Shown here in pieces: positions 1 through 44,508 of a stretch of DNA of 64,000 nt (position 1 is the stretch's first letter; every line of letters begins with the position of its first letter). Below the pieces are notes generated by a model. It was not told where the DNA came from. It did not search any database and was given only the letters and a program-made list of their open reading frames with translations. A program made the translations under genes and the position numbers. This DNA comes from a virus: positions 1-64,000 of the IMG/VR virus record IMGVR_UViG_3300042691_037543; one strand, written 5' to 3'.

Positions 1-19
1 GGGCGCTCTGAAACCCTGA

Positions 20-132
20 ACGAGCTAGTCATGTTTAAGAAAGGGCGACTGACTAGTGCGTACTGCGTTTCGATATCGTGCACGAGCTAGTCAGCGTTTC
101 GATATCGTGACTGACTAGTGCGTACTGCGTTT
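20..132. repeat. Nested direct repeats (62-bp period)
   Basis: ACGAGCTAGTCA at 20-31 and 82-93; GACTGACTAGTGCGTACTGCGTTT at 47-70 and 109-132; GCGTTTCGATATCGTG at 65-80 and 94-109. Confidence 0.9.
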
Positions 133-206
133 GGGGTATGGGCTCGGCACGAAGGCTGCTCTGACAGGCTCCCTAGAGCTCTGAGCAGAAAACCCTCTGA
201 ACCCTC

Positions 207-234
207 TTGCGTTCTCTTTAAGAATGGGTATTGT
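207..234 (+). promoter_or_regulatory. Putative sigma70-type early promoter
   Basis: TTGCGT (207-212), 16-nt spacer, TATTGT (229-234) in an AT-richer patch upstream of the first ORF. Confidence 0.4.
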
Positions 235-417
235 GTTGGGGCCTCGACGAACCGGCCCCCGCAAGGGGGCCCTGACGCGCCTAGGGCGCGAAACGCGAGG
301 CGCGACAGTCACAACATACTTCCCCCGCTGCGGCGGGGGCCTTTTCGCGTTCTAGGACTAGGCGCGAAACTGGGGAAGGGTGCGTCTTGTGTGCGCACCC
401 TGGAAAAGGATCGAACG

Positions 418-597
418 ATGAACGCCAAGGGTCTTATCAAGTCGGTTGCCCGCGTGTACGCCATCACGTCGCCGATCGCGGTCAGTTCGATGATCGTCGG
501 GTTTGGCGTAGGGTTCGTCGCGGGTACCCTCGCGAACCCTACGCACGGGTTCACCCGCGCCAACCCCTTCGCGAAGGGGGCCGGCGCCGCCAAGTAG
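418..597 (+). CDS. Small early membrane protein (59 aa)
   Basis: GGAAAAGGA RBS before ATG418; one hydrophobic Gly-rich segment (IAVSSMIVGFGVGFVAGTLA). Confidence 0.75.
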   Translation: MNAKGLIKSVARVYAITSPIAVSSMIVGFGVGFVAGTLANPTHGFTRANPFAKGAGAAK

Positions 598-781
598 CTC
601 CCTCGCGCCCCCTTCTCGAAGGGCCCCCTTCTCTACATCCTACGTCACCCCTAGCTAGGCATCGCGCCTAGCTTCTCTATACGCGTGCGATGCGTGTAGG
701 GTCGCCGGTACCCTCCCCCGGCAGAGCTCTTTTACAACTAGACGCGCGCGCCTACCCCTGGCGCCTCTCATGCTCGCGAGC

Positions 782-797
782 TGTTTCACGTGAAACA
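782..797. promoter_or_regulatory. parS: parS site 1
   Basis: Exact 16-bp palindrome TGTTTCACGTGAAACA, the chromosomal parS consensus; intergenic. Confidence 0.9.
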
Positions 798-925
798 GAC
801 TCCCGCGGCAAGAGGGTATGCCCAGGATGCAAGGTACCCGCGTGCGTCGCCTCTGCCAATACCCCCACCGGGCCCATTGAACCCGGTGGGGTCGATACCG
901 CGATGCCTCGCAGTACCTACCGCCG

Positions 926-941
926 TGTTTCACGTGAAACA
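926..941. promoter_or_regulatory. parS: parS site 2
   Basis: Second exact TGTTTCACGTGAAACA, nested in a longer inverted repeat (ACCTACCGCCGT 915-926 / ACGGCGGTAGGT 945-956). Confidence 0.9.
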
Positions 942-1027
942 GCTACGGCGGTAGGTTCTACGGTGCACCGCACCGTGTCTCGAAACCCGCGCCGCGATTC
1001 ACCGCGGCACTTGAAAGGAATTGCATC

Positions 1028-1933
1028 ATGGCCAAGTCCAACCGCCGCGCCCCCCGTACCACCATCCTTGCCACCATCGCGGATAGCGACACCGCCCCGG
1101 CCGACGAGGCCACCGTGCTCGACACCGCCCACGAGATTGCCGCGGACGCCGCGCACGAGCTCGCGGCCGACACCGCCGCCGAGTACACCGACACCGCGCC
1201 CGCGGTCACCGACCCCCACGGCGCGGCCGTGGCCTTTCTGGCCGCGTTCGACCCGGCGCGGTTGCCGCCGGGTATGCACGCGAAGTTCCTGTCCAGAGGG
1301 AACGTGACCCGTATGGGTCGCGTGGCTCTCGCGGCGGCCGGGGTCGAGCTGGACGGCCCGACGCACCGGGCATACAACGAGCTCCGTTCGGGATTCTGGT
1401 CCCGAATGGGCGGAACCCTCCCGCGGCGCGAAGGGGGCACGCCCCGTGCGCCCCGCACGGCCGGCGGTGCCCGCGGCGGGAACCGCGCCGCGCGCATCGC
1501 GGTGTTCGCGGCGAAGATTGCCGCGGCGTCGAAGAAGCTGGCCGGCATCCTCGCCACGGTTCCCGCGGGCGCCGCGCCCTTGGGTGATGGGCCCGAGTCA
1601 CTGGCCGCGGTGGCCGACATCACGGCGGGTGCCTTCGCTACCGTGGCCGCCGCGGTTGCCGGCCGCGCAGGGACGAACCCGGCCGGGTTCGAGGCGCCGC
1701 GAGTCGCTACGCCGGCCGTGGCGCCGGTTCCCCTCACCGCGGGAGGGTTCGCGGTGCTTACGCCCGCCGGACGGCGGTCCGCCGTCGAAGGGGGGTTGAT
1801 TGACGAAAACGACGCAGGCGAAAAGCTCACCATCCTGGCGTTGCCGGATGGTGGCAAGGTAGCCACCGTTCGCACGGCGAGCGGTGACCGCACTCGCATC
1901 GCGACGCGGTTTCTCGTCGGTGTGGCTGTGTAG
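1028..1933 (+). CDS. Early hypothetical protein, Ala-rich with acidic N-terminus and basic centre (301 aa)
   Basis: GAAAGGAA RBS, GC-rich third codon positions, followed by a hairpin at about 1946-1980. Confidence 0.8.
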   Translation: MAKSNRRAPRTTILATIADSDTAPADEATVLDTAHEIAADAAHELAADTAAEYTDTAPAVTDPHGAAVAFLAAFDPARLPPGMHAKFLSRGNVTRMGRVALAAAGVELDGPTHRAYNELRSGFWSRMGGTLPRREGGTPRAPRTAGGARGGNRAARIAVFAAKIAAASKKLAGILATVPAGAAPLGDGPESLAAVADITAGAFATVAAAVAGRAGTNPAGFEAPRVATPAVAPVPLTAGGFAVLTPAGRRSAVEGGLIDENDAGEKLTILALPDGGKVATVRTASGDRTRIATRFLVGVAV

Positions 1934-2051
1934 TTCCGTCACCTAGCACCGGGGCGCCTTACCGCGCGCCGCCCCGGTGCACACTCCCGCGCGGTCGTTT
2001 GTGCATATTCGTTTAATGTTTGGTTTTAGACCGTCTCGAACCCTCTAGACG

Positions 2052-2075
2052 GTTTGCATAAGAGATTATGCAAAC
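2052..2075. promoter_or_regulatory. Operator-like inverted repeat
   Basis: GTTTGCATAA-GAGA-TTATGCAAAC, perfect 10-bp AT-rich arms upstream of ORF 2145. Confidence 0.6.
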
Positions 2076-2144
2076 ATCGGCCGGCGCACGGTACCCACAC
2101 GGCCGTTACCTACCCCGCACCGGGTACCTGGAAAGGGAATTGTC

Positions 2145-2477
2145 ATGGATAAGAGCTTGAACCGACTTGCCCGCGAGAAGTTCGAGACTGCGCACGCGGC
2201 CGCGTGCGCCGCAGCGGCGGCCCGCGGGCCCGCACTCGCAGAGATGTCGGCAGTGTGCGGAGCTCCGGGTGACTACCCGGAGCTGCTCAATGGCCGTATC
2301 GCGGCCTACGCCGACGCGGCCCGCGCCGCCGCGGAAGCTGGCCTCGCGTTCGACGCGGTAGGGTCTACGCCGGGCGTAGACCCGGCGGCCTACTTCGCCG
2401 GGGCGCGGGCCCTCGCGGCGCCCGACGACCGCGAGCGACTCGAACGCGCGCAACGCGCGTTCGACGCGGTTTGCTAA
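2145..2477 (+). CDS. Early hypothetical protein (110 aa)
   Basis: GGAAAGGGAA RBS; followed by hairpin GCCAGGGCCC-TCGC-GGGCCCTGGC. Confidence 0.8.
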   Translation: MDKSLNRLAREKFETAHAAACAAAAARGPALAEMSAVCGAPGDYPELLNGRIAAYADAARAAAEAGLAFDAVGSTPGVDPAAYFAGARALAAPDDRERLERAQRAFDAVC

Positions 2478-2629
2478 CCGGCCAGGGCCCTCGCGGGCCC
2501 TGGCATCATGCGCCGCATATCGGTGCGTCCACCGTCCTAGCTAGACGGTACGCGCGGCGCGGGAAACCCGTACCCTCGTGCATGGTGCACGAGCAGCCGG
2601 GGAGCCAAACCAGGAAAAGGAATTGAGCC

Positions 2630-3025
2630 ATGAACAAGCACGAAGCCCGCGCCGTAGCTGAAACCGTTACGAGGGGGGTGTGCGTTCTGTTTGTAGGCTG
2701 GGATAGTGGTGGGCGGTACACCATCGGCGTCGAGCAGGGGGAGGAGTATTACGGCTTTAGCTGGGATGCTCCAAGTGCGAACATCCGTGGCGCTGCCACG
2801 GAAGCACTTTTCCGCAAGTGCCCGGGGGCCCGCCCCGTGGAAACGCTCAGTTTCACATCGGCGGCCCTGCGCGGCACCGTCACGCGCGGGGAAGCCAAGT
2901 ATATCCTGCGCGCCGAGTGCGGCGCGCTGCGAGCCTGGGAACGAACGGCACGGCTCGAAGTGCAGTGCCGGCGAGAGCGAAACGACGAAGTCACCGCGCG
3001 GGCGCGTGCGTTTCTCGCCGCGTAG
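2630..3025 (+). CDS. Early hypothetical protein (131 aa)
   Basis: GGAAAAGGAA RBS before ATG2630. Confidence 0.8.
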   Translation: MNKHEARAVAETVTRGVCVLFVGWDSGGRYTIGVEQGEEYYGFSWDAPSANIRGAATEALFRKCPGARPVETLSFTSAALRGTVTRGEAKYILRAECGALRAWERTARLEVQCRRERNDEVTARARAFLAA

Positions 3026-3143
3026 CACCGCGAACAGCCCCCGCGTGATGGGGCTGGCACTGCGCGCCCATAGTGGGCGCGTGGCCCGCGGCTGCACGGA
3101 TGCCGCAAGAGCGCAGGGAATGCGCCAGAAAGGGATGTCGATT

Positions 3144-3716
3144 GTGCTGATCCGTGTAAACACCGTGCCCGTGCTCGACGAAGACGGGGCAACCCGTCAC
3201 GTCCCGCACGGGACGATTGTAAGCTACCGGCGGCAGCCGGTAGCCATTGAGACGGTGCCGGTTGACGGCACCGTCTCGATCGACACGCCCACCGGGCGTG
3301 TTACCGCGTGGGTCGAGCCGGCCTACGCGGCGCGTCGCGGGCGCCCTTCCGTCGCGACGAGCGACGTGTCGGGCCCGCGTGCGGAGTACCGCACCGCGGC
3401 CCCCACGGTGGCGCACGCACGCACCATTGCGGCGTGCGACCGCACCCCAAACCGGGGCACCGCGCACATTGCGCTGGTGCCTGTTGCCCGCGGCAGCGCC
3501 GCGGGCACGGCTCGGGTCACCTTTTCATGGCTCGACCCGAGCCTGTCTCCCGCGCGCAGGTCTAAGCTGGCGCGCATGGTTTTCGAGCTCGCGGGGCTCG
3601 AAAACCCGTCGTCGGATGGTGCTTGGATCGTCCGTGACTTGGACACCGCACACCGCGAGCTTGTCGCGGTGTGCGCTCAGCTGGGGATCATGCCGGCGGT
3701 CAACCGCGTGGCGTGA
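3144..3716 (+). CDS. Early hypothetical protein (about 190 aa)
   Basis: GAAAGGGA RBS; GTG3144 (or ATG3135) within track ORF 2706..3716. Confidence 0.7.
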   Translation: MLIRVNTVPVLDEDGATRHVPHGTIVSYRRQPVAIETVPVDGTVSIDTPTGRVTAWVEPAYAARRGRPSVATSDVSGPRAEYRTAAPTVAHARTIAACDRTPNRGTAHIALVPVARGSAAGTARVTFSWLDPSLSPARRSKLARMVFELAGLENPSSDGAWIVRDLDTAHRELVAVCAQLGIMPAVNRVA

Positions 3717-3727
3717 TTCACGGCATA

Positions 3728-4237
3728 GCCGAACCCGAGCGAAGCGAGGGTGAGGCAAGCACCCCCACCCGGAATTCATCTAAGACTTTCCGGCTGGGGG
3801 GAGCGGGGGGTTTCCAAAGGGGGGTATGCGGGGGGCGACGGCGAGCGAAGCGAGCCCGCCCCCCTATATCCCCCCTTTGGGCTGAGTGCGCGAAGCGCAC
3901 CATGCACGGGCACCGCGGCGAGCGAAGCGAGCCCGTGCCCGTGCATCCTCGGCGAAGCCGAGGGCTCGATTGTCATGGTTTGGTCATAGTTCAGTCATTT
4001 CCTCACCATCGTTCACTTTTTCCCTTGGCAGATCGTGCGGTTTCTCTTAAAACGGGGGGTAGGGGGGAGCCGGACACCAGACCCCGGCTTCGCCGGGGGG
4101 TGAGAGGGCTTCGCCCTCTCACCGGGCGGCTTCGCCGCCCAATGCGAGGGGGGGCTGCTGCGCACCCCCCCTCCACCCCCCCGCTGTTCAGACTCCAGAT
4201 TCAGACCATAGGGAATGTAGCTTCGCTACATTCCCTA
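3728..4237. other. Cluster of GCGAAGC mini-hairpins on opposite strands; candidate replication/priming origin
   Basis: GCGAAGC at 3739, 3845, 3890, 3922, 3952; GCTTCGC at 4087, 4108, 4129, 4220; each at the tip of a stem; AT-richer core about 3965-4052. Confidence 0.65.
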
Positions 4238-4307
4238 TACACGGAAGCCCGGGATGCGCTCAGGCTTCTTAAACGAACGGTATTAAACGAAAAGAATAGG
4301 TGGGTCA

Positions 4308-5492
4308 ATGGACGTGCTCGAAGTGCTCAAGGTTGCCTACTTCGCGCGGGGTGGGTCCTACGGTGACGGGCTGCCGTTGCTGTTTTGGGGCCTCCCCGGC
4401 CCCGGAAAGACCGCGATCATCGAGCAGTTCGCTCGGTCGCTCGGGGTGCACTGCGAGGTGCTCTCCCCCGGCGAGCGCGGGGAGGGTGCCTTTGGGTGCG
4501 TGCCCGTGCCCGTGGGGAAGGCGAAGGATACGCGCATCGCGTACCCGCCGCCTTGGTGGCTGGATGACTTCAACGACAGGCCGGGCTCCATCCTCTTCGT
4601 GGATGAGCTGTCGTCGGCGCCCCCCGCGTTGCACCCGCCGCTGCTCGGTCTGATTCAGGCCAAGCGCATCGGCGGGAGCGAGCTCCCGCGCACGACGAGG
4701 GTTTTCGCAGCTGCGAACCCCCCGGAGTGCGCGGCGGGGGGCTTCGACCTCGCGCCCCCGGTGGCGAACCGGCTCGGCCACATCCAGTGGCCGATGCCCA
4801 CTGCTGAGCAGTGGGCCGACTACATGATCGGCGGCGCTTCGGGCGTGCGCCGCCCCATCGACGTGGCAGCCGCCACGTCGCTCGTGGAATCGGGCTGGGA
4901 CGCCGCGTTCGCGGCGGCGTCCGCGCTAACCAGCGCGTTCGCCCGAGCGAACCCCGGCATCCTGCACAGGATGCCGACGGAAGGGAGTGCCGCGAAGGCG
5001 TGGCCCTCCCACCGAACCTGGGAGCTCGCCACGCGAGCTCTCGCATCGGCCCGGCTGCACCGGGCCAGCGAAGAGACGAGCATCACGCTCGTCTCGGCCT
5101 TCGTTGGCGATGGCGCCGCCAGCGAGTTCCTGACGTGGGCGGCGCGTCAAGACCTCCCCGACGCTGGGGAGTTGTTGGATGGTCGTGCGACGTTCAAGCA
5201 CGACCCGACACGGGCCGACCGCACGCATGTGGTCGCGTCGGCCCTCGCGGCGACGCTCATCAGTGAGCGCGCCGACAAGGCGCGCTTCTCCGCGCGCGCC
5301 GAAAAGATGTGGGCGATCTTCGACGGCTTGGCCGTCGAAGGTGTGGACTTGATCTACGGTGCCGCGCGAGCGGCGCTCCTGGCCGCCAAGAACGGCCACC
5401 CGCTCGCGCCCGCGCTTACGACGGGCACGGCTTGGATTCGGGTGATGACCCGAATCAAACCGGCCCTCGCGGCGGCGGGCATCACCCCGTAG
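4308..5492 (+). CDS. MoxR-like AAA+ ATPase
   Basis: Walker A GLPGPGKT, Walker B ILFVDE, sensor AAANP, Arg finger PVANRL, PSHRTWE motif. Confidence 0.9.
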   Translation: MDVLEVLKVAYFARGGSYGDGLPLLFWGLPGPGKTAIIEQFARSLGVHCEVLSPGERGEGAFGCVPVPVGKAKDTRIAYPPPWWLDDFNDRPGSILFVDELSSAPPALHPPLLGLIQAKRIGGSELPRTTRVFAAANPPECAAGGFDLAPPVANRLGHIQWPMPTAEQWADYMIGGASGVRRPIDVAAATSLVESGWDAAFAAASALTSAFARANPGILHRMPTEGSAAKAWPSHRTWELATRALASARLHRASEETSITLVSAFVGDGAASEFLTWAARQDLPDAGELLDGRATFKHDPTRADRTHVVASALAATLISERADKARFSARAEKMWAIFDGLAVEGVDLIYGAARAALLAAKNGHPLAPALTTGTAWIRVMTRIKPALAAAGITP

Positions 5493-5560
5493 CCTTCACG
5501 GTAGGGCATCGGCTTCGGTCGGTGCCTCTCCGCGAGCGCTGCGCTCGGGAAAGGAATCGA

Positions 5561-6889
5561 ATGGTCTGGAATGCGAAAAGCCCCAAGAACCTCGGGGCGA
5601 AGGAAAAGCTGACCGCAGCCAAGATCACGGTAGTTCACAAACTACCGTATCTGGCCCAGGCGGTCAGCGCACTCGTACTGCGCGAAGTGCCGCGCAGTAC
5701 GCTGAACACGATGGCCGTGTCTCCCAACGGAGTGCTCCGTTGGGATGCGGCCGATATTGACGAACTGACCGTCGAACAGACGGCAGCCTCGCTCGTTCAC
5801 GAGGTGTTTCACCTCTTGAACGAGCACCATCCCCGACGCCATGCGTCGGGGATTCTCGACAGCGACGCGGCGTTGTGGAACGTCGCGGCGGACTGCGAGA
5901 TCAACGACAATCTCGCGGCTACGGGGATCGACATGTTCAGCATGGTGACCCCGACGAGCATGGGTCAGCCCGATGGGTTGACCGCAGAAATGTACTACGC
6001 CGCTCTCAAAAAGAGCGGCCAGGGCACGCCGCAGCCCAAGCAAGGCGGCCAGAGCCAGGGCCAAGGCCAGAGTCAGCCGAAAGCCGGCAACGCCCCCAAC
6101 AAGTGCGGCGGCAAGTGCGGCAGCGGCAAGTGCGGGGGTGGGGCCGGTGGTGAGCCGGCCGACGGCGAAGCCGGCGACAAGCCGGGCAGTGGTAGCGGCG
6201 CCGAGGGGCGTTCTGCGGGCGACATGAAAGCCGTGGCCGTCGCCACGGCAGCCGCAATGCAGGAAGCCGCGGCCAAACAGAAGGGGAGCGTACCCGGCGG
6301 ATGGGCGCGCTGGGCGGGCGACATGCTCGCGCCCCCCAAAGTGCGATGGCAAGACAAGCTTCGCGCGAAGGTGCGCAGCGCGGTCAACCATGCGGCCGGC
6401 ATGGTTGATAAGACCTACAAACGTCCAAACCGCCGACAGGCGGGGCTCGGCTACGGGGCCGGCGCCCCCGTTCTCGCGGGCTGGCACGCGCCACAGCCCC
6501 GCGTGATGGTCGCACTGGACACGTCCGGGTCGATGGGCTCGGGCGACTTCGAGCTCGCCATGAACGAGCTCGAAGGCATCCTCAAGGCGATGCCTGGGCG
6601 CGTCGTAGACTTCGTGGCGTGCGACGCCCAGGTGCACGCTGCGGTGCCCGTTCGCTCGTGGCGTGAGGCGAAAGCCTCGCTCCGCGGCGGCGGGGGTACA
6701 TCCTTCGAGCCCGTGATGGAACACATCACGGGGCTACCGGCCGCAAAGCGGCCGCACGTTCTCGTCGTAGCCACCGATGGCTACGGCGACGACCCCCCGA
6801 TCCCCCGCGACGTGCGGGTGATCTGGCTCGTCACGAGAGGCAACTACTGCTCTGCGAAGAGCGGAGAGCATGTCTACCTCGACGGGTGA
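5561..6889 (+). CDS. DUF2201-like protein: N-terminal HEXXH metallopeptidase plus C-terminal vWA domain
   Basis: HEVFH...WNVAADCEIN; Gly/Gln linker; MIDAS DTSGSM, GGGTSF, VATDG; RBS GGAAAGGAA before ATG5561. Confidence 0.88.
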   Translation: MVWNAKSPKNLGAKEKLTAAKITVVHKLPYLAQAVSALVLREVPRSTLNTMAVSPNGVLRWDAADIDELTVEQTAASLVHEVFHLLNEHHPRRHASGILDSDAALWNVAADCEINDNLAATGIDMFSMVTPTSMGQPDGLTAEMYYAALKKSGQGTPQPKQGGQSQGQGQSQPKAGNAPNKCGGKCGSGKCGGGAGGEPADGEAGDKPGSGSGAEGRSAGDMKAVAVATAAAMQEAAAKQKGSVPGGWARWAGDMLAPPKVRWQDKLRAKVRSAVNHAAGMVDKTYKRPNRRQAGLGYGAGAPVLAGWHAPQPRVMVALDTSGSMGSGDFELAMNELEGILKAMPGRVVDFVACDAQVHAAVPVRSWREAKASLRGGGGTSFEPVMEHITGLPAAKRPHVLVVATDGYGDDPPIPRDVRVIWLVTRGNYCSAKSGEHVYLDG

Positions 6890-7358
6890 CGCGATCATCG
6901 CGCGCGTGCACCTGCTCGGTGCGATGCACTCCGTGACGCACCGCACGCTCCCGTGCGCGTGCGTCGAAGAGTTCGCGTACACCGACAAGCAGATCGCAGC
7001 TCGGGTACCTGTGCGGTACACGAGCTTCAACGCTCAATGCCCGCTCGCGGGGCAAGACCACCGCAGCGGGTGGTTCGGCGTTGGCCACAGCGCGAACCGC
7101 TGGTCAGCGCGCCGTGTTCTGAACGACAACGTAGGCTCGCTCGCGGTGGTACTGACGCCTACGGATATCTTCGTAGGGTGGCCGCACGTCAAGAACACCA
7201 GCTCGCGTGACCCTGTCTTGTACAGGGTGTTCACCGACATGCTCCCCGGTGCGAGCAGATTTGGTGGATACGCGGACAACATCGAAGCACCGACGAAAAG
7301 ATTGCTGCGCGACGCGCTCGATGCGCGCATCGACGCGGCGTTAGTGGCTTGTCTGTAA
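6870..7358 (+). CDS. Hypothetical protein (162 aa)
   Basis: GGAGAG RBS; overlaps the end of the vWA gene; fills the gap to the next gene. Confidence 0.7.
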   Translation: MSTSTGDAIIARVHLLGAMHSVTHRTLPCACVEEFAYTDKQIAARVPVRYTSFNAQCPLAGQDHRSGWFGVGHSANRWSARRVLNDNVGSLAVVLTPTDIFVGWPHVKNTSSRDPVLYRVFTDMLPGASRFGGYADNIEAPTKRLLRDALDARIDAALVACL

Positions 7359-7373
7359 GAAAAGAGGAATCAC

Positions 7374-8243
7374 ATGGAAAAGCTGACGATCGTAGACGGT
7401 GGGGCGACCACGGGCGTTGTGACCTACTGGCAGCTGGCGGGGCGCACGGAGCGCACACGCCTGGAAGCGGCCTGGATGAAGGCCGGCCTGGACATGGCGG
7501 CGCTGCCGCCCGTCACTACGCCCCGCACGGCGCTCCAACGCGCGCTCGCAGAGTTTGCGGACAAAGATACGCTGGTCCGGCCGTCCGAGGATCCACACAC
7601 CTTCGCGGTGCTCAAGCGGGAGAAGGACTCCCGAGGAAAGCCCGTCTTCGTCACGCAGTGGGAGGCGCGGCTGGCGTCTCCCGACACCGACGACCCCGTC
7701 TGCGTGCTCCCCGACGGGGCGGATGTCTCCGAGGAAACCGCGGAGACGGTCGTGCTCGCGTTCCGCCGCGAGCTGCGCACGATCCACCACCACGACATCT
7801 CGTCGTGGCTGGTGGAGTGGGCTCGCCGCTGCCACGCCGTTTCGCTCCGAGACTCGGGCGGCTTCTACTACATCCCCAACACGCACGCGGCGACATGGCG
7901 TGCTGTCGGCGACGCGCTGGGCAGCGCATCGCGATCGAAGGTCTACGAGATCGCTGCGATGGCTGGCGACAAGGCGGCGGAAGCCGTACTCGACGCGCTG
8001 ACGCGCGAAGTACGCACCGTCGTCGAGGGCATCGACGAGAAGCTGGGCGACGTAGGCGTCCGCGCCCTCAAGGGTCGCGAGCGAGAGCTCGCAGCCTACG
8101 AGGCCAAGGTTGCCTCGTTCGAGTCGGCCCTCGGGGTGAAGCTCGATGCGCTCCGCGGGCAGCTCACCGAGCTCGGTGGCCGTGTGGCTGTGGCGGTGAT
8201 GGCCGCCGAAGCCAACACCGGGTTCAGCGGCCTGGGTCTGTAG
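7374..8243 (+). CDS. Hypothetical protein, DUF3150/DUF6744-like, with C-terminal coiled coil
   Basis: AGAGGAA RBS; SLRDSGGFYYIP motif recalled from this family, which often accompanies AAA+/vWA modules. Confidence 0.6.
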   Translation: MEKLTIVDGGATTGVVTYWQLAGRTERTRLEAAWMKAGLDMAALPPVTTPRTALQRALAEFADKDTLVRPSEDPHTFAVLKREKDSRGKPVFVTQWEARLASPDTDDPVCVLPDGADVSEETAETVVLAFRRELRTIHHHDISSWLVEWARRCHAVSLRDSGGFYYIPNTHAATWRAVGDALGSASRSKVYEIAAMAGDKAAEAVLDALTREVRTVVEGIDEKLGDVGVRALKGRERELAAYEAKVASFESALGVKLDALRGQLTELGGRVAVAVMAAEANTGFSGLGL

Positions 8244-8246
8244 CAT

Positions 8247-8279
8247 CGGGGTGCCCTATGGCACCCCGGCTTCTCTTTT
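8247..8279 (+). terminator. Rho-independent terminator
   Basis: CGGGGTGCC-CTAT-GGCACCCCG followed by TTCTCTTTT. Confidence 0.8.
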
Positions 8280-8306
8280 AGACTTCTGAATATCCAAGGA
8301 GATCAC

Positions 8307-8910
8307 ATGAAAGCGTGGACGTGGCGTGACTTAGAGAGCGGCGTGGTCTTCGACCCAACCGAGGCAGGATGGCTCCCCATGCATCTAGCCAAAAGATTTA
8401 CGGATGCCAAGTGGTGCGCCGTGCGCCGTGCGCCGCGCGTACGATTGCACAATTAACCCACCAGCCTGGAAAGGCTTGATGTTCGTGCGAACCCGTGGGT
8501 TCGCGTGCACGCGGCTGATGACTGCGATGTACATGAACGAAGACGGCTGCAAGCGGGTTCTCAAGATGCAGCCCGACGACCTCGCGCGGTTTTATCAGAC
8601 AAAGCCGGCGTGGGCGCGAACCCGCACAATAGAGCCTTTGTGGACCCACATCGTCGGCACCCTGTACGGCGACGCCTATGCGGCTGCGGATGCGGTCATG
8701 CACCGCGTGCCGTGCATGGCGGGAATGTACCGATCGGTACTCCCTATCGCGCAGCATACAAGGCTAACTGAGCTCTACGCGCCTGATCGCACCACGCTCA
8801 GGGTGGTGTTCGCGTCGGTGTTTGGTCGAGCGAACCCGAGCCGCACACAGGTTGCGGAGTGGCTAGGCGCATCCTACGCCGCGTGGAGTATGACCCGTGA
8901 AATGGGATGA
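8307..8910 (+). pseudogene. Hypothetical gene split by a (GTGCGCC)3 repeat
   Basis: AAGGAG RBS and ATG8307 frame stops at 8456; removing one 7-mer joins it in frame to ORF 8404..8910, giving 198 aa. Confidence 0.65.
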
Positions 8911-9433
8911 GCTGAAAACCAACGGAGCAGTGGCACTCAGTAACGAGTACCTGAGCAGTGTATGCCCCGACCACTACGACTTTGGCTGGCGTCGGAACAA
9001 CCGAATCGTCAAACCAACCGTAGACTTCCGCGAAATCCAGATCATCACGGCGCTCGACTTCCCGCAAGAGCTGTCGGACGAAATCCTGCTGATGACGCCT
9101 GATGAGTTCGCGGAGTTTATCGTTGCCAAGCCGCGAATCAGGCTCCCCGATACAGATGAAGTGCTCGTCGATGGATTCCACGGAAGGTATGACATCTTCG
9201 CAGAGATCGTAACCTTCCGGCTACGCACCTCGGGGTATGTGCTGCGCGCGCTACACCCGCTTGGCGACCTTCCGCTGACAACCACCGGGGCGTCTGTTTG
9301 GCAGTACACGCCAGAGCAAGTGCGGGAGGCATGTTTGTTCTGGACGGGGAAGCCCGAACCGGGGCCGATGGAGCTGGAGAACGCCATGCGCGAGCGGTGG
9401 CACGTCGTGCGTGGCTTGCTGGTGGCGGAATGA
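8897..9433 (+). CDS. Hypothetical protein (178 aa)
   Basis: GGAG RBS with GTG start; overlaps both neighbours. Confidence 0.75.
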   Translation: MKWDELKTNGAVALSNEYLSSVCPDHYDFGWRRNNRIVKPTVDFREIQIITALDFPQELSDEILLMTPDEFAEFIVAKPRIRLPDTDEVLVDGFHGRYDIFAEIVTFRLRTSGYVLRALHPLGDLPLTTTGASVWQYTPEQVREACLFWTGKPEPGPMELENAMRERWHVVRGLLVAE

Positions 9434-9795
9434 AGAAACCGAGCCTTCACCTCCGTGCGTTCGCTGAGCTCAAGACAACAGACGGGGATGGGCTCGTCAA
9501 ATGCCTCGCGCCGTACATCAGCCCCCGCGGTTTGAGATGGTCGTGGGCTGGAATGGCCAACACCATCCGTGCCAACAGGTACATACATAACTTGGCTACC
9601 CCGAGCAACAGCGGGTTGGCCACATACCTCAGCATGTACGGGGCGCTTATCTACAAAATCGTAGACGAGCCGCTTGCCCGTCAATGGGTTGCTGAGTTTC
9701 ACAACATCGACAAGCAAGAGGTGGTAGACTCCTGGGAGTACCTGTACTGGTACTACGATGAAATCCTACCCGTGATCCAAGCAATCATACAGTGA
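9430..9795 (+). CDS. Hypothetical protein (121 aa)
   Basis: ATGA overlap with upstream stop. Confidence 0.7.
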   Translation: MKKPSLHLRAFAELKTTDGDGLVKCLAPYISPRGLRWSWAGMANTIRANRYIHNLATPSNSGLATYLSMYGALIYKIVDEPLARQWVAEFHNIDKQEVVDSWEYLYWYYDEILPVIQAIIQ

Positions 9796-9802
9796 GCGTG
9801 AA

Positions 9803-10327
9803 GTGAACCAAACAATCGTGGACGTGCTCAACGAAGCCGCACGACGGTACAACCGCGTGTGGTGGGCAAACGCAATGGAGCTCACCCAGGCCGCGTGGCC
9901 CGACGTGCTCGTGGCCAGCCGTCGGTTCGACCCGGCTCGCGGCGACTACCGCGGTCTGCTGTACCACGTCGCCGTGCGGGCAATGGCGCGGTACCTGCGC
10001 TCGATGAGCGCCCCGGTGAGCGGGGACGTGTGGCGCAAGGGGAGGCTCGACGGGATTCTTAGAGAACCCGTCGAAGACGATTCTTTAACACTTGACGCCG
10101 CGCCCGAGCGGGTCGAATGTGTCGCGCGGGTTCGCGCCCGCGTCGAGGAAGTCCTCGGAGAAGAAGCGCCGTTCGCAGTGCGTTTGCTAACGCGCGAGAG
10201 CACGGCACAAGAGATTGCCGACGAGGCGGGTGTATCCACCAGTCTCGTATACAAGTGGACGATGGTGTGGCGTCGTGTTCTCAAGCACGACGCCGAGCTC
10301 CGTCTGCTGTGGGAGGAGTCCGACTGA
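9803..10327 (+). CDS. ECF/sigma70-like factor
   Basis: Region-2-like ELTQAAW...RRFDPARGDYRGLLY and region-4 HTH TAQEIADEAGVSTSLVYKW. Confidence 0.75.
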   Translation: MNQTIVDVLNEAARRYNRVWWANAMELTQAAWPDVLVASRRFDPARGDYRGLLYHVAVRAMARYLRSMSAPVSGDVWRKGRLDGILREPVEDDSLTLDAAPERVECVARVRARVEEVLGEEAPFAVRLLTRESTAQEIADEAGVSTSLVYKWTMVWRRVLKHDAELRLLWEESD

Positions 10328-10953
10328 TGGACATGGAACTCAAGACGATTACGGCTGCCGAGCTCCGCAGGCAGCCGGTGAACCCGAACGAGATGTCGAG
10401 CGACGAGCTCGTCATGCTCCAGAAGTCGATCAAGCGCTTCGGCATGATCGACCCTGTCATCGTGCAGCCCAACGAAGACGGGCTGACGTATGACATTCTC
10501 GACGGGCACCACCGACTCGAAGCCGCCATCGCGAACGGCATCGTCGGGATTCCGTGTGTCGTCGTGGGCGGGTACATGCCCGACGAGATCAACGCGCTTC
10601 AACTCGCGTTGAACAAGAACCGCGGGCACATCCGACTCGACACTGCGGAGACGATCCTCCGCGAGCTGGCGAGTATGGGGTGGGAGCGCACGGAGCTCGC
10701 GGTGACGGGGTTCAGCGACGACGAGCTCTCGCGCCTGCTCGATGACGCCGTCGAGCAGACTGCGAAGGCGGCGAAGGCGGTGTCGGTCGAAGCTCCTGCG
10801 GCCGAAGACAGACCCTTCACCCTGGAGCTCAAGTTCCACACACAAGAGCAGCTCCGCGCGGTGCGCAAGGCGCTCAAGCGGTCGAGCGGAGAGCTCAAGG
10901 ACGAAAGCCTCGGCATGTTGAACATGCTCGGGCTTCTGGAGGATGGACGATGA
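10327..10953 (+). CDS. ParB/Sulfiredoxin N-terminal domain protein 1
   Basis: NPNEM...SIKRFGMIDPVIV...ILDGHHRLEAA; C-terminal LAVTGFSDDEL typical of phage ParB-N proteins. Confidence 0.85.
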   Translation: MDMELKTITAAELRRQPVNPNEMSSDELVMLQKSIKRFGMIDPVIVQPNEDGLTYDILDGHHRLEAAIANGIVGIPCVVVGGYMPDEINALQLALNKNRGHIRLDTAETILRELASMGWERTELAVTGFSDDELSRLLDDAVEQTAKAAKAVSVEAPAAEDRPFTLELKFHTQEQLRAVRKALKRSSGELKDESLGMLNMLGLLEDGR

Positions 10954-11258
10954 CGACGGAAGTGGTGAAGACGCGGCACGCCCGCAAGTACAAGCGGCGC
11001 ACCTCGAAGGCCGACGACGCGTGGCTCTTGCGTGGGTACATCAACCCGTCGCGGGTGAGCGAGCTCCTCGGCCTGACGGCCCCGACGGTCTACCGCTGGG
11101 GGGCGCTCGGGTATGTGAAGGTCGTCGAAGACGGGCGACGCCGCTTCTTCGACGTGGCATCGCTGCGTGCATATCTGGCGGACGAGAGCCAGACCGCACT
11201 GATCGACGCCCACATCCGTGAACGCAAGGCCCAGCTCCTCGACGAGCTGGACACCTAG
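10950..11258 (+). CDS. Excisionase/MerR-like HTH DNA-binding protein
   Basis: YINPSRVSELLGLTAPTVYRWG...RRRFFDVASLRAYL. Confidence 0.75.
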   Translation: MTTEVVKTRHARKYKRRTSKADDAWLLRGYINPSRVSELLGLTAPTVYRWGALGYVKVVEDGRRRFFDVASLRAYLADESQTALIDAHIRERKAQLLDELDT

Positions 11259-11259
11259 C

Positions 11260-12705
11260 GTGTGGATCGAGGTGGACAACGTCGTCGCGCGGGTCAGCAA
11301 GATCAGCGACGACGAGGCGCACTGGCTGTACAACTTCCTCGTACTGCCAGTGAACGGCTTTCGTGCGCGGTACCTGGGCGGCCAGCAAGGCGAGCCCTTG
11401 TACAACGTGCGCGCGCAGTGCTTCCCGTCAGGGTTGCTCGGCGTGGTCATGCGCGGCGCGCGCGCCGAGAGCATCGAGGTGAACGTGCGCGACAAGCGCA
11501 AGCCGCCTGGGAAGCACGACCACAAGGCGGACCTGTCGTGGCTGCGCGACTACCAACATGAAGCCGTCGAGCGGTGCTTCGTCAAGCACCGCGGCATCAT
11601 CAAGGTAGGGACGGGCGGCGGCAAGACGGAGATCATCGCAGCGCTCGCAGCGCTCTACCCCGTCGAGTGGGATTTTCTCGTGCACCGCGCGAGCCTTCTC
11701 GACGAGATCGCCACGCGCATCGAGCGCCGTATCGGTGAGCCGGTAGGCCGCTTTGGTGACGGCCGGCGGACCTTCGAGCGCGTGAACGTCGTGATGTTTC
11801 AGTCGCTCCACAAGGCGCTCTGTCAGAAAGACAGCCGCGCCTTGGCGCACGTCAAGAGCGTACGCGGCATGGGCATCGACGAAGTGCACGTCGCCGCGAG
11901 CAAGACGTTCTTGCAGACCGCGCAGGCGTACAGCGGGGCGTACTACCGCTTCGGGTTCAGCGGCACGCCGCTCGACCGCAGCGATGAGCGCAACCTCGCA
12001 GTGATCGGCGCGACGGGCGACGTGATTTACCGCCTCGACTCCGCGCAGCTTGTCGAGCACGGCGCCATCGCCCGGCCGACCATTCACCTTGTGCGTATCC
12101 CGGTGCCGCGCATCGGCGGCTACAAGGCGATGAACATGATGCAGTTCTCGCGGCAGTGGGCGCAGTCGTACGACGCGGTCATGGCGTCGCAAGAACGGAT
12201 GAAGGTGCTCGTCAGCACGGTGCAGCAGGCGCCCAAGCCGTGCCTGACTTTCGTGAGGAGCATCGACCACGGGCGTGAGGTAGTGCGCGCGCTACGCAAG
12301 GCGGGGGTCGCGGCAGACTTCGTCTTCGGACAGCGCGACACGCACGCACGAGCCAGCGCGGTCAAGGCGCTCGTCAACGGCGACCTCGATGTGCTGGTCG
12401 CGAACATCGTGTTTCAAGAGGGCGTGGACATCCCGTCGCTCCAGTCCCTCGTCATGGCCGGTGCGAACAAGAGCACCATCGGCACCCTCCAGTCGCTCGG
12501 GCGCGCGCTGCGCCGAACCGACTCCAACAACGTAGTCGTGAAGGATGAAGTGCCGGTTTACGACATCGCGGACACGCACTGCGGGTGCAAGCGCACCGAG
12601 GGCGGGTACACGATGTACGACCACAACACTTGCAAGTGGTTCGACCAGCACACGTCTGCGCGTGTGAAGGACTACCGCAAGGCCGGGCATACTGTGAAGG
12701 AGTGA
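11260..12705 (+). CDS. Superfamily 2 DNA helicase (UvsW-like)
   Basis: LRDYQ, GTGGGKT, DEVH, SGT, EGVDIP, QSLGRALR motifs; start may be 11218. Confidence 0.92.
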   Translation: MWIEVDNVVARVSKISDDEAHWLYNFLVLPVNGFRARYLGGQQGEPLYNVRAQCFPSGLLGVVMRGARAESIEVNVRDKRKPPGKHDHKADLSWLRDYQHEAVERCFVKHRGIIKVGTGGGKTEIIAALAALYPVEWDFLVHRASLLDEIATRIERRIGEPVGRFGDGRRTFERVNVVMFQSLHKALCQKDSRALAHVKSVRGMGIDEVHVAASKTFLQTAQAYSGAYYRFGFSGTPLDRSDERNLAVIGATGDVIYRLDSAQLVEHGAIARPTIHLVRIPVPRIGGYKAMNMMQFSRQWAQSYDAVMASQERMKVLVSTVQQAPKPCLTFVRSIDHGREVVRALRKAGVAADFVFGQRDTHARASAVKALVNGDLDVLVANIVFQEGVDIPSLQSLVMAGANKSTIGTLQSLGRALRRTDSNNVVVKDEVPVYDIADTHCGCKRTEGGYTMYDHNTCKWFDQHTSARVKDYRKAGHTVKE

Positions 12706-12706
12706 G

Positions 12707-13471
12707 ATGATTGACTTGAACCAGCCTTTGATTGGCGGCGCACCCGTCCGGCGGGTTATGCCGTGGGGGCTCATCACGGTGACGTGGCAGGGTGTGTTTC
12801 CACGAGAGCCGGGCCCGTGGCTCTACACGCAGCTCCCGCGTCCCCCGGTGCTCAAGGCAACCAACACCGACGAGCAGAACGCACAGCTCGTCGCGACTGC
12901 GCTCCGCACGACCTACGAGTATGTGCACCCAATTCGTGCACGCTCCGTGAAGGCGGAGCTGGGGTACAGCCGCAGGCGCGCGGTGGGGTCGCTCGACGTG
13001 TACCCGCAGCTCGTCGAGTTCGCACAGCACGCGCTACGGCGAACGTGCGCCCCGCACGAGTGGTTCTACTGGAGCCTCGCTGTGTGGAGCAACCACGTCC
13101 GCGCGAAGAGCAGCGAGGTGTCCATCTTCCCACGCATGGACTGGATGCTGCGCGCGTCGCGCATCGGCACCGACAAGACGTGGGCGTGGTTCAAGCACGA
13201 CCTGCGCAAGATGGGCGGCCAGATCGTGCTCGCCGCGGAGGCGCGGCTGTACGCCGAGCGCTTTCAGCAGATGCAGGCGCGCGTGCAGGCTGTCGCAGAC
13301 CACGGCGCTGCAAAGTCGGTTGTGGTCGCGGCGGCCAACGACGGGCCGTGCACGTTGGAGCAACTGCGCGCGATGGCCCCCAAGGCAGAGCGTGCCGCCA
13401 GGGAGCTCTCCGCAGACCTACAGGCGCGCTACGACGCGTTCGAGTTCTTGAAGGAGTGGGCAAGTGGCTGA
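12707..13471 (+). CDS. Hypothetical protein between the helicases (254 aa)
   Basis: AAGGAG RBS; tightly packed in the replication operon. Confidence 0.75.
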   Translation: MIDLNQPLIGGAPVRRVMPWGLITVTWQGVFPREPGPWLYTQLPRPPVLKATNTDEQNAQLVATALRTTYEYVHPIRARSVKAELGYSRRRAVGSLDVYPQLVEFAQHALRRTCAPHEWFYWSLAVWSNHVRAKSSEVSIFPRMDWMLRASRIGTDKTWAWFKHDLRKMGGQIVLAAEARLYAERFQQMQARVQAVADHGAAKSVVVAAANDGPCTLEQLRAMAPKAERAARELSADLQARYDAFEFLKEWASG

Positions 13472-14765
13472 CAAAAAAGATTCCTACGGGATGACGATGT
13501 CCTTCGAGCGGCTGGTTGCATGTATGTGCGCCAGCCGCGCCTCGTTCATCGGCAAGATCATCACCATCGACCCGTCGCGTCTCGGTGACCCGGCCGCGCA
13601 GCTCGCCGTTCGCTGCGCGCTGGCGATCTTCAAAGACACGGGGCACGGCCCGAGCAGCACGGTCATCTGCGCGCAGCGCGCGCGAAGGTGGGTGCACGAG
13701 GGCTCCACCACCTACGAAGAGCTGAACATGATGCTCGACATGTTCATCGAGGCCCCGCACGAGAAGACTGGCGAGGCCGACGTGCTTGGGGAGCTCGTAC
13801 CCGTACTCAAGCGCGCGGCGCACCAAGAGATCGTCACGAGCACCATGACCGAGTTCGCGAACCGCGGTGACTTCACCAAGGTCCGCAAAAAGCTGGACGA
13901 GGTAGACCGGCTGGGCGTCGTGGATACGTCGCTCGGTACGATTCTCGGCACCGAAGACGTGTTCTCGGAGATCAACCGCTCCAACCTCGCAGACAGACGG
14001 AGCACGGGCATCTTCGAGCTCGACCTCGTGCTGCAAGGCGGCCTGCCTCGTGGGTGCTTGCTGATCGCCGTGGCCGGCACGAGCGGCGGCAAGAGCGTCT
14101 TTATGAATCACATGAGCGCCAAGGGTCTGCGCGACGGGTTGTTCGTCGGATACGCGACCCTGGAGCTGAACGTGGCCACGGTGAACGCGCGCCTGCTGGC
14201 CAACCTCACCGAAGTGCCGATCAACACGATCATGGGCGGCAACCACACGATCGCCCGTGAGAAGTACGAAGAGATGAAGCCCAACCTCGGGCAGTTCGTG
14301 AGCAAGTGGTTCCCCGCGAAGCTCACGACCATGACGGACATCAACGCGTGGGTGGCCGACGCCGAGCAGCGCATGGGTCGCAAGATGGATTTGCTGGCCG
14401 TGGACTACGGCGACAAGTTGGCTTCGACGAAGCAAGCCGACAACATGCAGTCGAGCAGCTACGCCGCGATGGACACGGTGTACGAGACGATGCGCATGTC
14501 GAGCGAGGTTGCGCAGCGCTTCACGATCACCGGGTCGCAGGCGCAGCGTCGCAAGACCAACGACCGCAACAAGCGCATCGAGTCGGAAGACATCGCGGAC
14601 TCGATGGCGAAAGCTCGCATCTGCGACCAGATGATCTCGATGGTCAAGAGCGACGACGGCATGATTACCTTCTTCGTCGCCAAGAACCGCTTTGGTGACG
14701 AGAACATGCTGGTCGGCCCCGTGGCTACCAACTTCGCGTGCGGGCGCATCGCGGGGGTGTACTGA
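13464..14765 (+). CDS. dnaB: DnaB-like replicative helicase
   Basis: STGIFELD...GGLPRG, Walker A AGTSGGKS, TLEL, AVDYGD, AKNRFG. Confidence 0.88.
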   Translation: MADKKDSYGMTMSFERLVACMCASRASFIGKIITIDPSRLGDPAAQLAVRCALAIFKDTGHGPSSTVICAQRARRWVHEGSTTYEELNMMLDMFIEAPHEKTGEADVLGELVPVLKRAAHQEIVTSTMTEFANRGDFTKVRKKLDEVDRLGVVDTSLGTILGTEDVFSEINRSNLADRRSTGIFELDLVLQGGLPRGCLLIAVAGTSGGKSVFMNHMSAKGLRDGLFVGYATLELNVATVNARLLANLTEVPINTIMGGNHTIAREKYEEMKPNLGQFVSKWFPAKLTTMTDINAWVADAEQRMGRKMDLLAVDYGDKLASTKQADNMQSSSYAAMDTVYETMRMSSEVAQRFTITGSQAQRRKTNDRNKRIESEDIADSMAKARICDQMISMVKSDDGMITFFVAKNRFGDENMLVGPVATNFACGRIAGVY

Positions 14766-40754: not shown

Positions 40755-40755
40755 G

Positions 40756-41160: not shown

Positions 41161-41495
41161 AGCCTCGCGGTGACGACGATGGTGCCGTAGCTACCGTCGT
41201 CGGGTACGACCACGACGGTAGCGCCCACGGTAACGACGTACTGGTAGTCGTACGTCCCCGGCTGGAGGTCAGTAGTAGCGAACGTGGTGTCCACGTTGCC
41301 GTCGGTGGCGGGGGATACGACCGAAGGGGTTTTCGTGACGCGCACGCCGAGGTCGCGGTGCTTCGCAACGAGGCTCACGGTAGCCGCGGTCAGGTCGATC
41401 GGCTCCCCGCCCTGTGTCAGCGTGTCGCGCAGCACGGGGAGGGTGGCGCCCTCGCTGATATAGAACTCGCTCAGGCACCCGCAGCTCATGGTCAA
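41157..41495 (-). CDS. BppU-like Ig-fold structural adaptor
   Basis: YISEGATLPVL...PIDLTAATV...GTYDYQYVVT...PDDG. Confidence 0.75.
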   Translation of the reverse strand: MTMSCGCLSEFYISEGATLPVLRDTLTQGGEPIDLTAATVSLVAKHRDLGVRVTKTPSVVSPATDGNVDTTFATTDLQPGTYDYQYVVTVGATVVVVPDDGSYGTIVVTARL

Positions 41496-44505: not shown

Positions 44506-44508
44506 GGA

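Follow-up and report, generated by a model that had tools for sequence, protein, structure and literature searches.

IMG/VR virus record IMGVR_UViG_3300042691_037543 is an 84,736-bp contig of an uncultured phage, in the class with direct terminal repeats. We analyzed its first 64,000 nt, called the window below; positions are those of the window unless genome coordinates are stated. Between two plus-strand genes, the second of which encodes a MoxR/AAA_5-like ATPase, lies a non-coding array of nine hairpins that share the apex heptamer GCGAAGC, five on the plus strand left of an AT-richer core and four on the minus strand right of it (Table 1). Two related IMG/VR contigs, L003 and L004, carry the same array. 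An earlier reading of the letters alone (the sequence-only reading) had proposed a bidirectional origin with one priming platform per strand, or a single-stranded DNA (ssDNA) promoter or protection element. The array itself is real, conserved and beyond chance. We tentatively interpret it as a strand-opening element of the DNA, most likely a replication origin.

Table 1. Features of the array, its core and its flanks
Feature	Position	Strand	Description
Upstream gene	3135..3716	+	193 aa, no known family; stop 12 nt before H1; frame conserved in L004 (69% aa, 254 bits)
H1	3728..3756	+	GAA cap; 9 Watson-Crick pairs; two tandem 5'-GA-3'/3'-AG-5' sheared-type mismatches
Promoter-like box TTCATCTAAGAC	3775..3786	+	between H1 and H2; kept in L003, L004
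Four G6 runs, G6-AGC-G6-TTTCCAAA-G6-TATGC-G6	3796..3835	+	G-quadruplex-type motif; last two runs double as H2 5' arm; invariant in L003, L004
H2	3814..3880	+	long bulged hairpin; GAA apex 3840-3856; one tandem G.A mismatch
H3	3886..3900	+	perfect 6-bp GAA hairpin; L004 counterpart gtcgcGAAgcgac
H4	3902..3946	+	long hairpin; GAA apex 3917-3933; one tandem G.A mismatch
H5	3947..3963	+	perfect 7-bp GAA hairpin; 85% complementary to H6
AT-richer core	3964..4053		11-nt phased repeat 3970-4002 (TTGTCATGGTT / TGGTCATAGTT / CAGTCATTTCC); second plus-strand box within
Second box	4041..4053	+	right edge of core; kept in L003, L004
G6-TA-G6	4054..4067	+	directly behind second box; kept in L003, L004
H6, H7, H8	4082..4140 (4082-4098, 4099-4123, 4124-4140)	-	abutting perfect hairpins, 7, 11, 7 bp; GAA loops
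C7-TCCA-C7 run	4165..4182	+	partners G runs in weak outer stem; not kept in L004
H9	4208..4238	-	perfect 14-bp stem 4208-4221/4225-4238; GAA loop
Small hairpin gaagcc/ggcttc	4244..4277	-	6 bp; overlaps minus-strand box; both kept in L004
Box TTCGTTTAAGAA	4277 (4277-4266)	-	just past H9; kept in L004
Downstream gene, MoxR/AAA_5-like ATPase	4308..5492	+	phrog_1297 at 2.6e-33; Pfam AAA_5 weak; heads ATPase / metallopeptidase-VWA operon
All box sites	window 212, 2019, 3775, 4041, 4277(-), 8271, 17428, 20360, 61769; genome 75316, 84376, 84415		

Nine GNA-capped hairpins around an AT-richer core

GCGAAGC occurs on the plus strand at 3739, 3845, 3890, 3922 and 3952, and on the minus strand at 4087, 4108, 4129 and 4220. 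These nine of the window's 37 matches fall within 488 nt (3739–4226); the expectation for the whole 64-kb window is 24.8 ± 5.4. Every one of the nine is the apex of a hairpin, and a G-N-A triloop with C:G closure inside a G–C clamp was found in 9/9. The mirror arrangement described by the sequence-only reading, five plus-strand then four minus-strand hairpins, is thus confirmed. Genome-wide, C:G-closed GNA/TNC triloop hairpins with at least five Watson–Crick pairs number 18, of which nine are in 3728–4238 (511 nt). The other nine are scattered across 84.2 kb, near the level of shuffled genomes (∼6), and the phage genome holds no second locus of the array type.

The stems are of two kinds. H3 and H5–H9 are perfect palindromes in the window, without G·U pairs; the 14-bp stem of H9 is as perfect as had been claimed, its end having been placed one base short, at 4237. 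H1, H2 and H4 do contain the tandem GA/GA mismatches noticed earlier, two in the first and one in each of the others. On the complementary strand these turn into pyrimidine–pyrimidine mismatches, so that the three hairpins would be stable on the plus strand only. Longer G/C-run stems enclosing some of the hairpins had also been proposed. That on the left, in H2 (3814–3837/3857–3880), has arms 79% complementary and is kept in both relatives; that on the right (4054–4085/4150–4181) is just 72% complementary and is not kept in L004. The hairpins next to the core form inverted modules, each short-long-short, H3–H5 on the plus strand and H8–H6 on the minus strand, with further hairpins beyond. On either strand, the fold of each half is far more stable than those of shuffles (z −6.1 to −8.0), in an energy model that lacks a special term for GNA loops or sheared G·A pairs and hence cannot tell the strands apart.

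The core between the modules is AT-richer, as had been read: 3966–4055 is 44% GC, tied 4th lowest among the non-overlapping 90-mers of the 84.7-kb genome. Tandem Repeats Finder scored its repeat at 33, with period 11 and 2.5 copies; L003 keeps the repeat, L004 adds a fourth unit to it, and the motif has 4 matches across the window against 2.9 expected. Of the genome's 43 runs of at least six G or C, 12 fall in 3796–4182.

Three of the promoter-like boxes lie within the array region, and the outer two, 3775(+) and 4277(−), point inward. The box is 12–13 nt long, approximately TTC-N-T-N-T-W-A-R-A-M, and recurs at 12 distinct genome sites against ∼1 in shuffles, an enrichment that is partly circular since the pattern was derived from some of its own sites. 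Nine sites are on the plus strand, in or ahead of the plus-strand arm of genes, and most are in gaps preceding genes. The box may be a phage promoter or operator element. A sigma-70 promoter scan of 1–6000 gave 0 sites.

The array stretch is non-coding, in line with what had been supposed. An open reading frame (ORF) at 3671–4366 was considered as a gene and rejected: its G+C at third codon positions (GC3) is 0.58, against 0.78–0.93 in credible genes, and relatives carry frame-breaking indels. Many indels in the L003/L004 alignment of the region are not multiples of three, and every frame scores similarly low when the region is compared with L004. No Rfam family or tRNA was found in the 64-kb window, which fits the earlier view of a function as DNA rather than as RNA. 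Searches of 3300–4700 against 50,697 phage records and of 3720–4245 against 72,556 plasmid records gave no match. Public runs were compared with the window as Logan contigs (10 runs), of which X2, X3, X4 and X8 were used; none of the four yielded usable depth or any start, end or joint. Breaks fall at 3782/4177 in the DNA contigs of X2 and at 4015, 4142 and 4427 in those of X3.

Conservation of the array and spread of its hairpin type

L003 and L004 were found by an ATPase search of IMG/VR. The ATPase and the upstream protein are 99% and 89% identical to those of the window in L003, and 77% and 69% in L004. We aligned the three sequences, taking pairs from the window's predicted fold, and found 92.8% of cells paired. 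Pairs changed on both sides numbered 16, compared with 6.0 ± 1.9 in shuffles (0/500 reach 16) and 0–3 in slid controls. Compensatory stem change in relatives, which had been suggested as a check on the array, is therefore present, and most loops keep G-N-A with C:G closure. Twelve of the 16 double-sided changes are in GNA-capped hairpins: two in H2, four in H4, one in H5, four in H7 (all in L004) and one in H9. The stem of H2 (helix 6), kept in both relatives, has 27 pairs and is 98.8% paired; that of H4 (helix 8) has 18 pairs and is 98.1% paired. These changes indicate that the hairpin stems are under selection; as the comparison covers just three genomes, of which two are close, and takes its fold from one, the independent events can be neither dated nor counted.

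Loop variants that hold the G and the A are GCA (H2 in L004) and GGA (H4 in L003), among n = 3 genomes. L004 has the window's polarity, four plus-strand then three minus-strand hairpins, plus the GCA-capped H2; it keeps H1 with one A–T to G·T change, and H9 is missing from it. In L003, H9 has a paired T>G / A>C change, which also appears in a contig of an RNA-library run. A kissing-loop idea, in which GAA loops would pair with UUC loops, was rejected, as the GCA and GGA variants are uncompensated in the other half. An IMG/VR scan with the G-run/TTTCCAAA motif found nothing beyond the two known contigs. L003 also has, at its 5365–5400, an extra canonical terminator (5-bp GC stem + T5) between the upstream stop codon and H1, in neither the window nor L004. 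Its addition ahead of H1 suggests that the array itself is not a terminator.

The array is centered in an 8-kb palindrome-dense zone (250–8500). Perfect hairpins (stem of at least 7 bp, loop 3–5 nt) number 51 in 1–8000 against 3.3 ± 1.5 in dinucleotide shuffles, ∼15×; 8001–16000 and 40001–48000 have four each, at expectation. Many of the zone's hairpins are inside coding sequences of the flanking genes. The zone also exists in L003, and in L004 it is narrower. Paired changes keep some of the coding hairpins (3223–3244 and 3249–3277), and most of those in the ATPase and VWA genes are half-paired in L004 (93/173 pairs, 7 compensated). In near-perfect flank hairpins of the window, the counts of sense-strand G·T against A·C pairs were 8:0 for the left flank and 4:2 for the right one; the wobble bias was rejected when homologous L004 flank positions gave 3:3 and 14:16. 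The zone looks like the work of a DNA-level process or constraint, centered on or coextensive with the early region.

Beyond L003 and L004, a metagenome scan with the ATPase gave 74 loci, at identities of up to 48%; a genome_contigs scan with the same protein gave no match. Of the 81 ATPase loci, we examined the 68 that include the N-terminus (left out were L018, L019, L021, L025, L029, L048, L063, L064, L074, L075, L078, L082 and L083). Where GNA hairpins occur upstream of the ATPase operon, they number, minus to plus strand, 3:0 in L050, 3:0 in L051, 2:0 in L058 and 2:0 in L005; these distant relatives keep the polarity of the right half. The loops of L050, L051 and L058 are TGC (GCA on the minus strand), placed ahead of a conserved promoter-like motif and 13–270 nt from the contig end. 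Those of L005 come after a primase gene and an AT-rich repeat tract, with an H9-like hairpin 88 nt upstream of the ATPase gene. Many contigs of ATPase relatives (L012, L014, L043, L044, L050, L051, L058 and others; some are 37, 45 and 92 kb) stop 40–700 nt upstream of the ATPase, which suggests either a structure that is hard to assemble or a real genome end.

The hairpin type was also sought by its letters. Among the 118 stretches listed when IMG/VR was scanned for triple GCGAAGC, only 10 loci showed four or more GNA-type hairpins in 700 nt, and the only mirrored array was L138, which is the L004 contig. One GC-rich island, L108 130–560, is in an unrelated low-GC phage contig near the contig end; 8/8 of its GNA hairpins are on the minus strand, among GTGTCA repeats, and it lies upstream of a terminase-looking gene, identified by eye only. 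L167, a low-GC IMG/VR contig, ends (9060–9611) in a long inverted repeat that encloses tandem CGAGCGAAGCGAG hairpin units. The 17-mer GGCGAGCGAAGCGAGCC, the exact apex of H2 and H4, was found at a minimum of 120 bacterial and archaeal loci (L206–L325) in many phyla, including low-GC bacteria and haloarchaea. These loci sit between housekeeping genes, such as recA/pilT-like genes and ilvD, and 56 of the 120 listed have at least two GNA hairpins within 600 nt, some mixed in orientation. Four GNA hairpins stand in a row between pilT-like and recA in L228, an Acidobacteriota metagenome-assembled genome, and seven are present in the haloarchaeal contig L211. With its apex so widespread in prokaryotes, the hairpin type is a general feature of intergenic DNA.

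Genome setting

The phage genome has a G+C content of ∼65%, and its genes form two arms, one per strand. The record's terminal repeat is only 69 bp, and the contig start may therefore be an assembly closure and no physical end. The minus-strand arm, from 83.7 to 38.7 kb, encodes large terminase, portal, major head protein, tape measure, and baseplate hub and wedge, a content that marks the phage as myovirus-like. Within the large terminase subunit gene (genome 80943–83699, minus strand; L203 6944–9700) there is a Hint/intein-type insert (Pfam Hint_2, Intein_splicing). No cultured phage is close; every PolA match was below 60% identity.

The plus-strand arm begins near the contig junction, and three small conserved genes without assigned function (1028–1933, 2145–2477 and 3135–3716) precede the array. 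The product of the last of these had no Pfam or PHROG match, no usable match in the ESM Atlas, no similarity to the L005 primase, and just 4 homologues among 5.8 billion proteins. After the ATPase comes a DUF2201 metallopeptidase/VWA gene (Pfam DUF2201_N and DUF2201). Pfam and PHROG matches show a phage-encoded replisome of DnaB-like helicase (13464–14765), primase (14738–15652), PolA, gp32-like single-stranded DNA-binding protein (SSB) and RecA, the primase being of the Toprim/zinc-ribbon, DnaG-like type (phrog_47). The arm further encodes an SF2 helicase, a sigma-like protein and SbcD/SbcC-like proteins. Two ParB-like genes are present (10117–10953 and 30231–31010), and a parS-like palindrome, TGTTTCACGTGAAACA, occurs twice, at 781–798 and 927–944, 146 nt apart.

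Possible roles of the array

Our preferred reading, a tentative one, is of a non-coding element that opens the strands at the level of DNA; most likely it would be a replication origin, each strand having one hairpin module. Ultra-stable DNA mini-hairpins follow a rule of G-N-A loops, in which the middle base is free to vary, closed by a C:G pair (PMC13037366, PMC3201870). Most loops of the array, with their G-N-A and C:G closure and, in two variants, a changed middle base, match the published rules, as do the sheared-type tandem G·A pairs, and thus point to DNA rather than RNA. An indirect sign of folding as DNA is the H7 loop of L003, whose exact inversion is what intrastrand template switching in a DNA hairpin would yield. 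A function on separated DNA strands, as the sequence-only reading had proposed, gains from the strand switch across the core being kept in L004 and from most loops following the DNA rule; against it, the asymmetric features of the left half would fit RNA equally.

Promoter hairpins of phage N4 extrude from supercoiled duplex; of each pair, SSB melts the complementary hairpin but leaves the GNA one intact (PMC4496689). In the array, negative supercoiling or an initiator would open the core and the palindromes would extrude; by analogy with N4, SSB would melt each pyrimidine-loop hairpin and the GNA hairpin would persist. This would keep the duplex open, and the strands left free, the bottom one on the left and the top one on the right, would be the lagging-strand templates of forks leaving the core. 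The 5'–3' DnaB-like helicase, loaded on lagging-strand templates, would move outward. Hairpin islands resistant to SSB would give the primase entry points, one module per strand, in the manner of the single-strand initiation signals ssiA and ssiB of the IncQ plasmid RSF1010.

A variant of the origin reading starts from the inward boxes at 3775(+) and 4277(−). If these are promoters, transcription would push aside the non-template strands, which are G-rich and form hairpins, and R-loop primers would stay behind. For forks or transcripts that enter from these outer boxes, the displaced non-template strands are those with the GNA hairpins and most of the G runs. Structure on a displaced non-template strand stabilizes R-loops, and ColE1-type priming signals lie there. 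In R-loop origins (T4 oriF/oriG, ColE1) and in primer formation at mitochondrial conserved sequence block II (CSBII), a promoter is followed by non-template G runs beside an unwinding element, and displaced-strand structure stabilizes the RNA–DNA hybrid. The layout of the array would be alike if its boxes act as promoters. Both geometries, forks leaving the core and entry from the outer boxes, would give a bidirectional origin. An extended version would put the polarity of the origin in the hairpin loops: box promoters fire into the G-run and GNA modules, displaced strands fold into G-quadruplex and mini-hairpins, the 3' ends of R-loop RNAs prime both leading strands across the core, hairpin islands admit primase or helicase on the lagging-strand templates, and the 8-kb palindrome excess is a mutational scar of long-lived single strands. 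We regard this complete scheme as unlikely.

The nearest documented precedent for a bidirectional origin of this kind is RSF1010, whose oriV has ssiA and ssiB once each on complementary strands (PMC8567376). There, hairpin single-strand signals, used by the RepB' primase, lie on each strand beside an AT-rich, initiator-opened region and are exposed only upon unwinding (PMC8567376); ssiA holds a GAA-capped mini-hairpin, CCGAAGG (PMC13037366). The array likewise has hairpins on both strands beside an AT-rich core. RSF1010 has one 40-nt signal per strand and the array five hairpins on one strand and four on the other. Unlike RSF1010, the phage has a Toprim-type primase and lacks RepC-type iterons, and a RepB'-type primase was not seen in the Pfam/PHROG scans, which covered part of the ORFs. 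The modules are similar in size to the three-hairpin module of the primase-dependent complementary-strand origins of phages G4, St-1 and alpha3, which comprise three stem-loops. In those origins, mini-hairpins stand where primase starts on SSB-coated ssDNA, and mini-hairpins, found at G4/St-1 priming sites and in ssiA, bind SSB poorly (PMC13037366). G4, St-1 and alpha3 are ssDNA phages with one origin on one strand, whereas the array is in a double-stranded DNA phage and has two inverted modules. The array resembles known mini-hairpin priming and promoter signals and belongs to none of the tested families.

Several observations weigh against an origin at this site. The strand switch and the conservation are in its favor; GC-skew mapping, which had been proposed as a check, was ambiguous, with a broad cumulative minimum from ∼80 kb to 2 kb and a skew that tracks gene strand over much of the genome. 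The junction region at 84.35 kb–0.2 kb (genome 84350–84736 plus window 1–200; L203 10350–10737) is non-coding, next to the terminase gene, and a rival origin or packaging-site (pac) candidate. It has several iteron-like direct repeats of 20–30 nt (GAGCTAGTCA...GTTTCGATATCGTGAC and GACTAGTGCGTACTGCGTTT units), a G6-TA-C6 palindrome, two boxes and, at 34% GC, the 90-mer that is richest in AT genome-wide, with the two parS-like palindromes further on. By these features it would be at least as good an origin candidate as the array. The geometry of diverging forks puts the stable hairpins on leading-strand templates, for the polymerase to unwind. In the right half the loops are the sole strand-specific feature; in the left half the asymmetric features are on the sense strand and would serve equally in RNA, and the three boxes inside the region suit a transcriptional hub just as well. 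The nine orientations may also not be independent, given that H5 and H6 are 85% complementary and the mirror image perhaps goes back to one ancestral inverted duplication of a three-hairpin module. Polarity is not strictly held: in L003 the H1 loop is AAC, with G-N-A lost, and the H7 loop is exactly inverted, TTC to GAA. The full array is limited to three closely related contigs, and in 62 of the 68 ATPase loci examined the 900 nt upstream hold no GNA/TNC hairpin whose stem reaches 6 bp. CGAGC-GNA-GCGAG hairpins also occur between ordinary chromosomal genes of many prokaryotes, and an origin role is implausible there.

A transcriptional or RNA hub between two early operons is another possible reading, on the unlikely side in our judgment. 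The left half would be a structured 3' region of the upstream operon, or a leader from the box at 3775, the ATPase operon would have its promoter in the core (box at 4041), and the right half would be that operon's structured 5' leader. The hairpins would then serve as RNA, for stability, termination or attenuation. The plus strand encodes both flanking genes, and plus-strand transcripts probably cross the region. The three boxes are conserved, and the same box stands ahead of other plus-strand genes (8271, 20360 and 84376/84415). The sense strand carries the tandem G·A and G·T features of the left half, as it does the 8:0 excess of G·T over A·C in the near-perfect hairpins of the left flank, a bias that L004 lacks. 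Contigs from RNA libraries span 3874–4027 and 4148 onward (one starts at 4148), an observation of presence only, with DNA carry-over possible. The G-N-A loop with C:G closure, in turn, is a rule of DNA stability, and the right half as sense RNA would have UUC triloops, for which we know of no stabilizing rule. Stems H3 and H5–H9 are perfect, without G·U pairs in the window, and the region has no Rfam match. None of the four terminator-like sites (GC hairpin + U/T-tract) found in 1–6000 is in 3717–4307, whose hairpins are without a U-tract, and the terminator added in L003 precedes H1. In L050, L051 and L058 the hairpins sit upstream of the conserved promoter-like motif.

Rather unlikely, in our view, is a cluster akin to repetitive extragenic palindromes (REPs) and bacterial interspersed mosaic elements (BIMEs), where palindromes spread by template switching or a single-strand mobilizer would be harmless or of general benefit (supercoil sink, gyrase/IHF site, mRNA end protection), with nothing specific to do for the phage, and an inverted duplication would account for the mirror. 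REP/BIME elements, like the array, are GC-rich intergenic palindromes that alternate in orientation about short linkers; gyrase and IHF bind to them, and they influence mRNA ends (PMC2817692, PMC3333891). In favor of this reading are the breadth of the 17-mer loci, 56 of the 120 listed having at least two GNA hairpins, the 8-kb zone with its 51 perfect hairpins, whose coding members are only partly kept in L004, and the loop inversion in L003. REPs in BIMEs alternate in orientation (PMC2817692). The array, however, is a single locus without other copies in the phage or matches among the phage and plasmid records searched, and its stems all differ, with only the loop and closing pairs in common, whereas REPs are high-copy and share sequence. 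Array, order, polarity and core are kept with compensatory changes although the ATPase of L004 is only 77% identical, which argues for purifying selection and counts against this reading.

Improbable, to a further degree, is that the core is a junction of physical DNA ends, or a start of packaging or recombination, where the hairpin module of each 3'-ending strand would fold after resection and cap the end or aid its replication. Streptomyces linear replicons, which have a terminal protein and fold 3' overhangs at their ends, are the model. The GNA strand runs 5'–3' toward the core in both halves; in L050, L051 and L058 all eight GNA hairpins are on the strand whose 3' end faces the nearby contig end, a polarity shared by 4/5 other end-proximal IMG/VR arrays (L108, L167, L180 and L192; not L157). 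Long contigs of ATPase relatives (L043, L050 and L058) stop at most 0.7 kb upstream of the ATPase, and the phage encodes RecA, SbcCD-like and gp32-like proteins. Three independent assemblies (G000, L003 and L004) nevertheless read through the array, and strong hairpins break short-read assemblies anyway, as the X2 and X3 DNA contigs also do here. The large terminase (TerL) gene is 5 kb off, and the adjoining repeat-rich region is the more usual place for pac.

Least probable are N4-type ssDNA hairpin promoters, each template-strand GNA hairpin recruiting a hairpin-reading RNA polymerase for transcription away from the core, since no virion-type or T7-like RNA polymerase was found in Pfam/PHROG scans of large proteins. 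The longest stop-to-stop frame (1,173 codons) has PKD domains and an unannotated PHROG, the other large proteins being tail, baseplate, terminase and portal; a PF00940 search was empty, as was its control. The hairpin type matches N4 P1–P3: a GC-rich GCG(A/G)AGC heptamer, a 3-nt GAA/GGA loop with sheared G:A and C:G closure, and a 5–7-bp template-strand stem (PMC4496689, PMC13037366), a length range that includes H3, H5, H6 and H8 (6–7 bp). The polarity of the right half suits rightward transcription of the ATPase operon and recurs in L004, L005, L050, L051, L058 and L108. Unlike N4 promoters, which are kilobases apart, the array hairpins are clustered, with polarities facing away from a common core. 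Abutting hairpins leave no space for separate start regions, and no −17 to +1 context or shared flank was seen by reading the sequence (no formal motif search was made); N4 promoters have such a context, and their start is fixed 11 nt from the loop center. The left half would drive antisense transcription of conserved plus-strand genes, and the sigma-like gene suggests that the phage relies on the host polymerase.

Strand-opening signals of uncultured phages, origins included, are almost never identifiable from sequence. In the array, a strand-specific signature can be read from the physical chemistry of DNA: G-N-A loops, C:G closures and sheared G·A pairs, accompanied by stem covariation and a flip of polarity. 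If the array is an origin, the polarity of forks or priming would be fixed by hairpin loops rather than by protein-binding sites, and N4 promoters, the G4 and IncQ priming signals and the array would be joined under one principle. If it is REP-like, the same hairpin from haloarchaea to phages, together with the palindrome zone, would suggest that DNA mini-hairpins arise and are retained through a general process not yet described.

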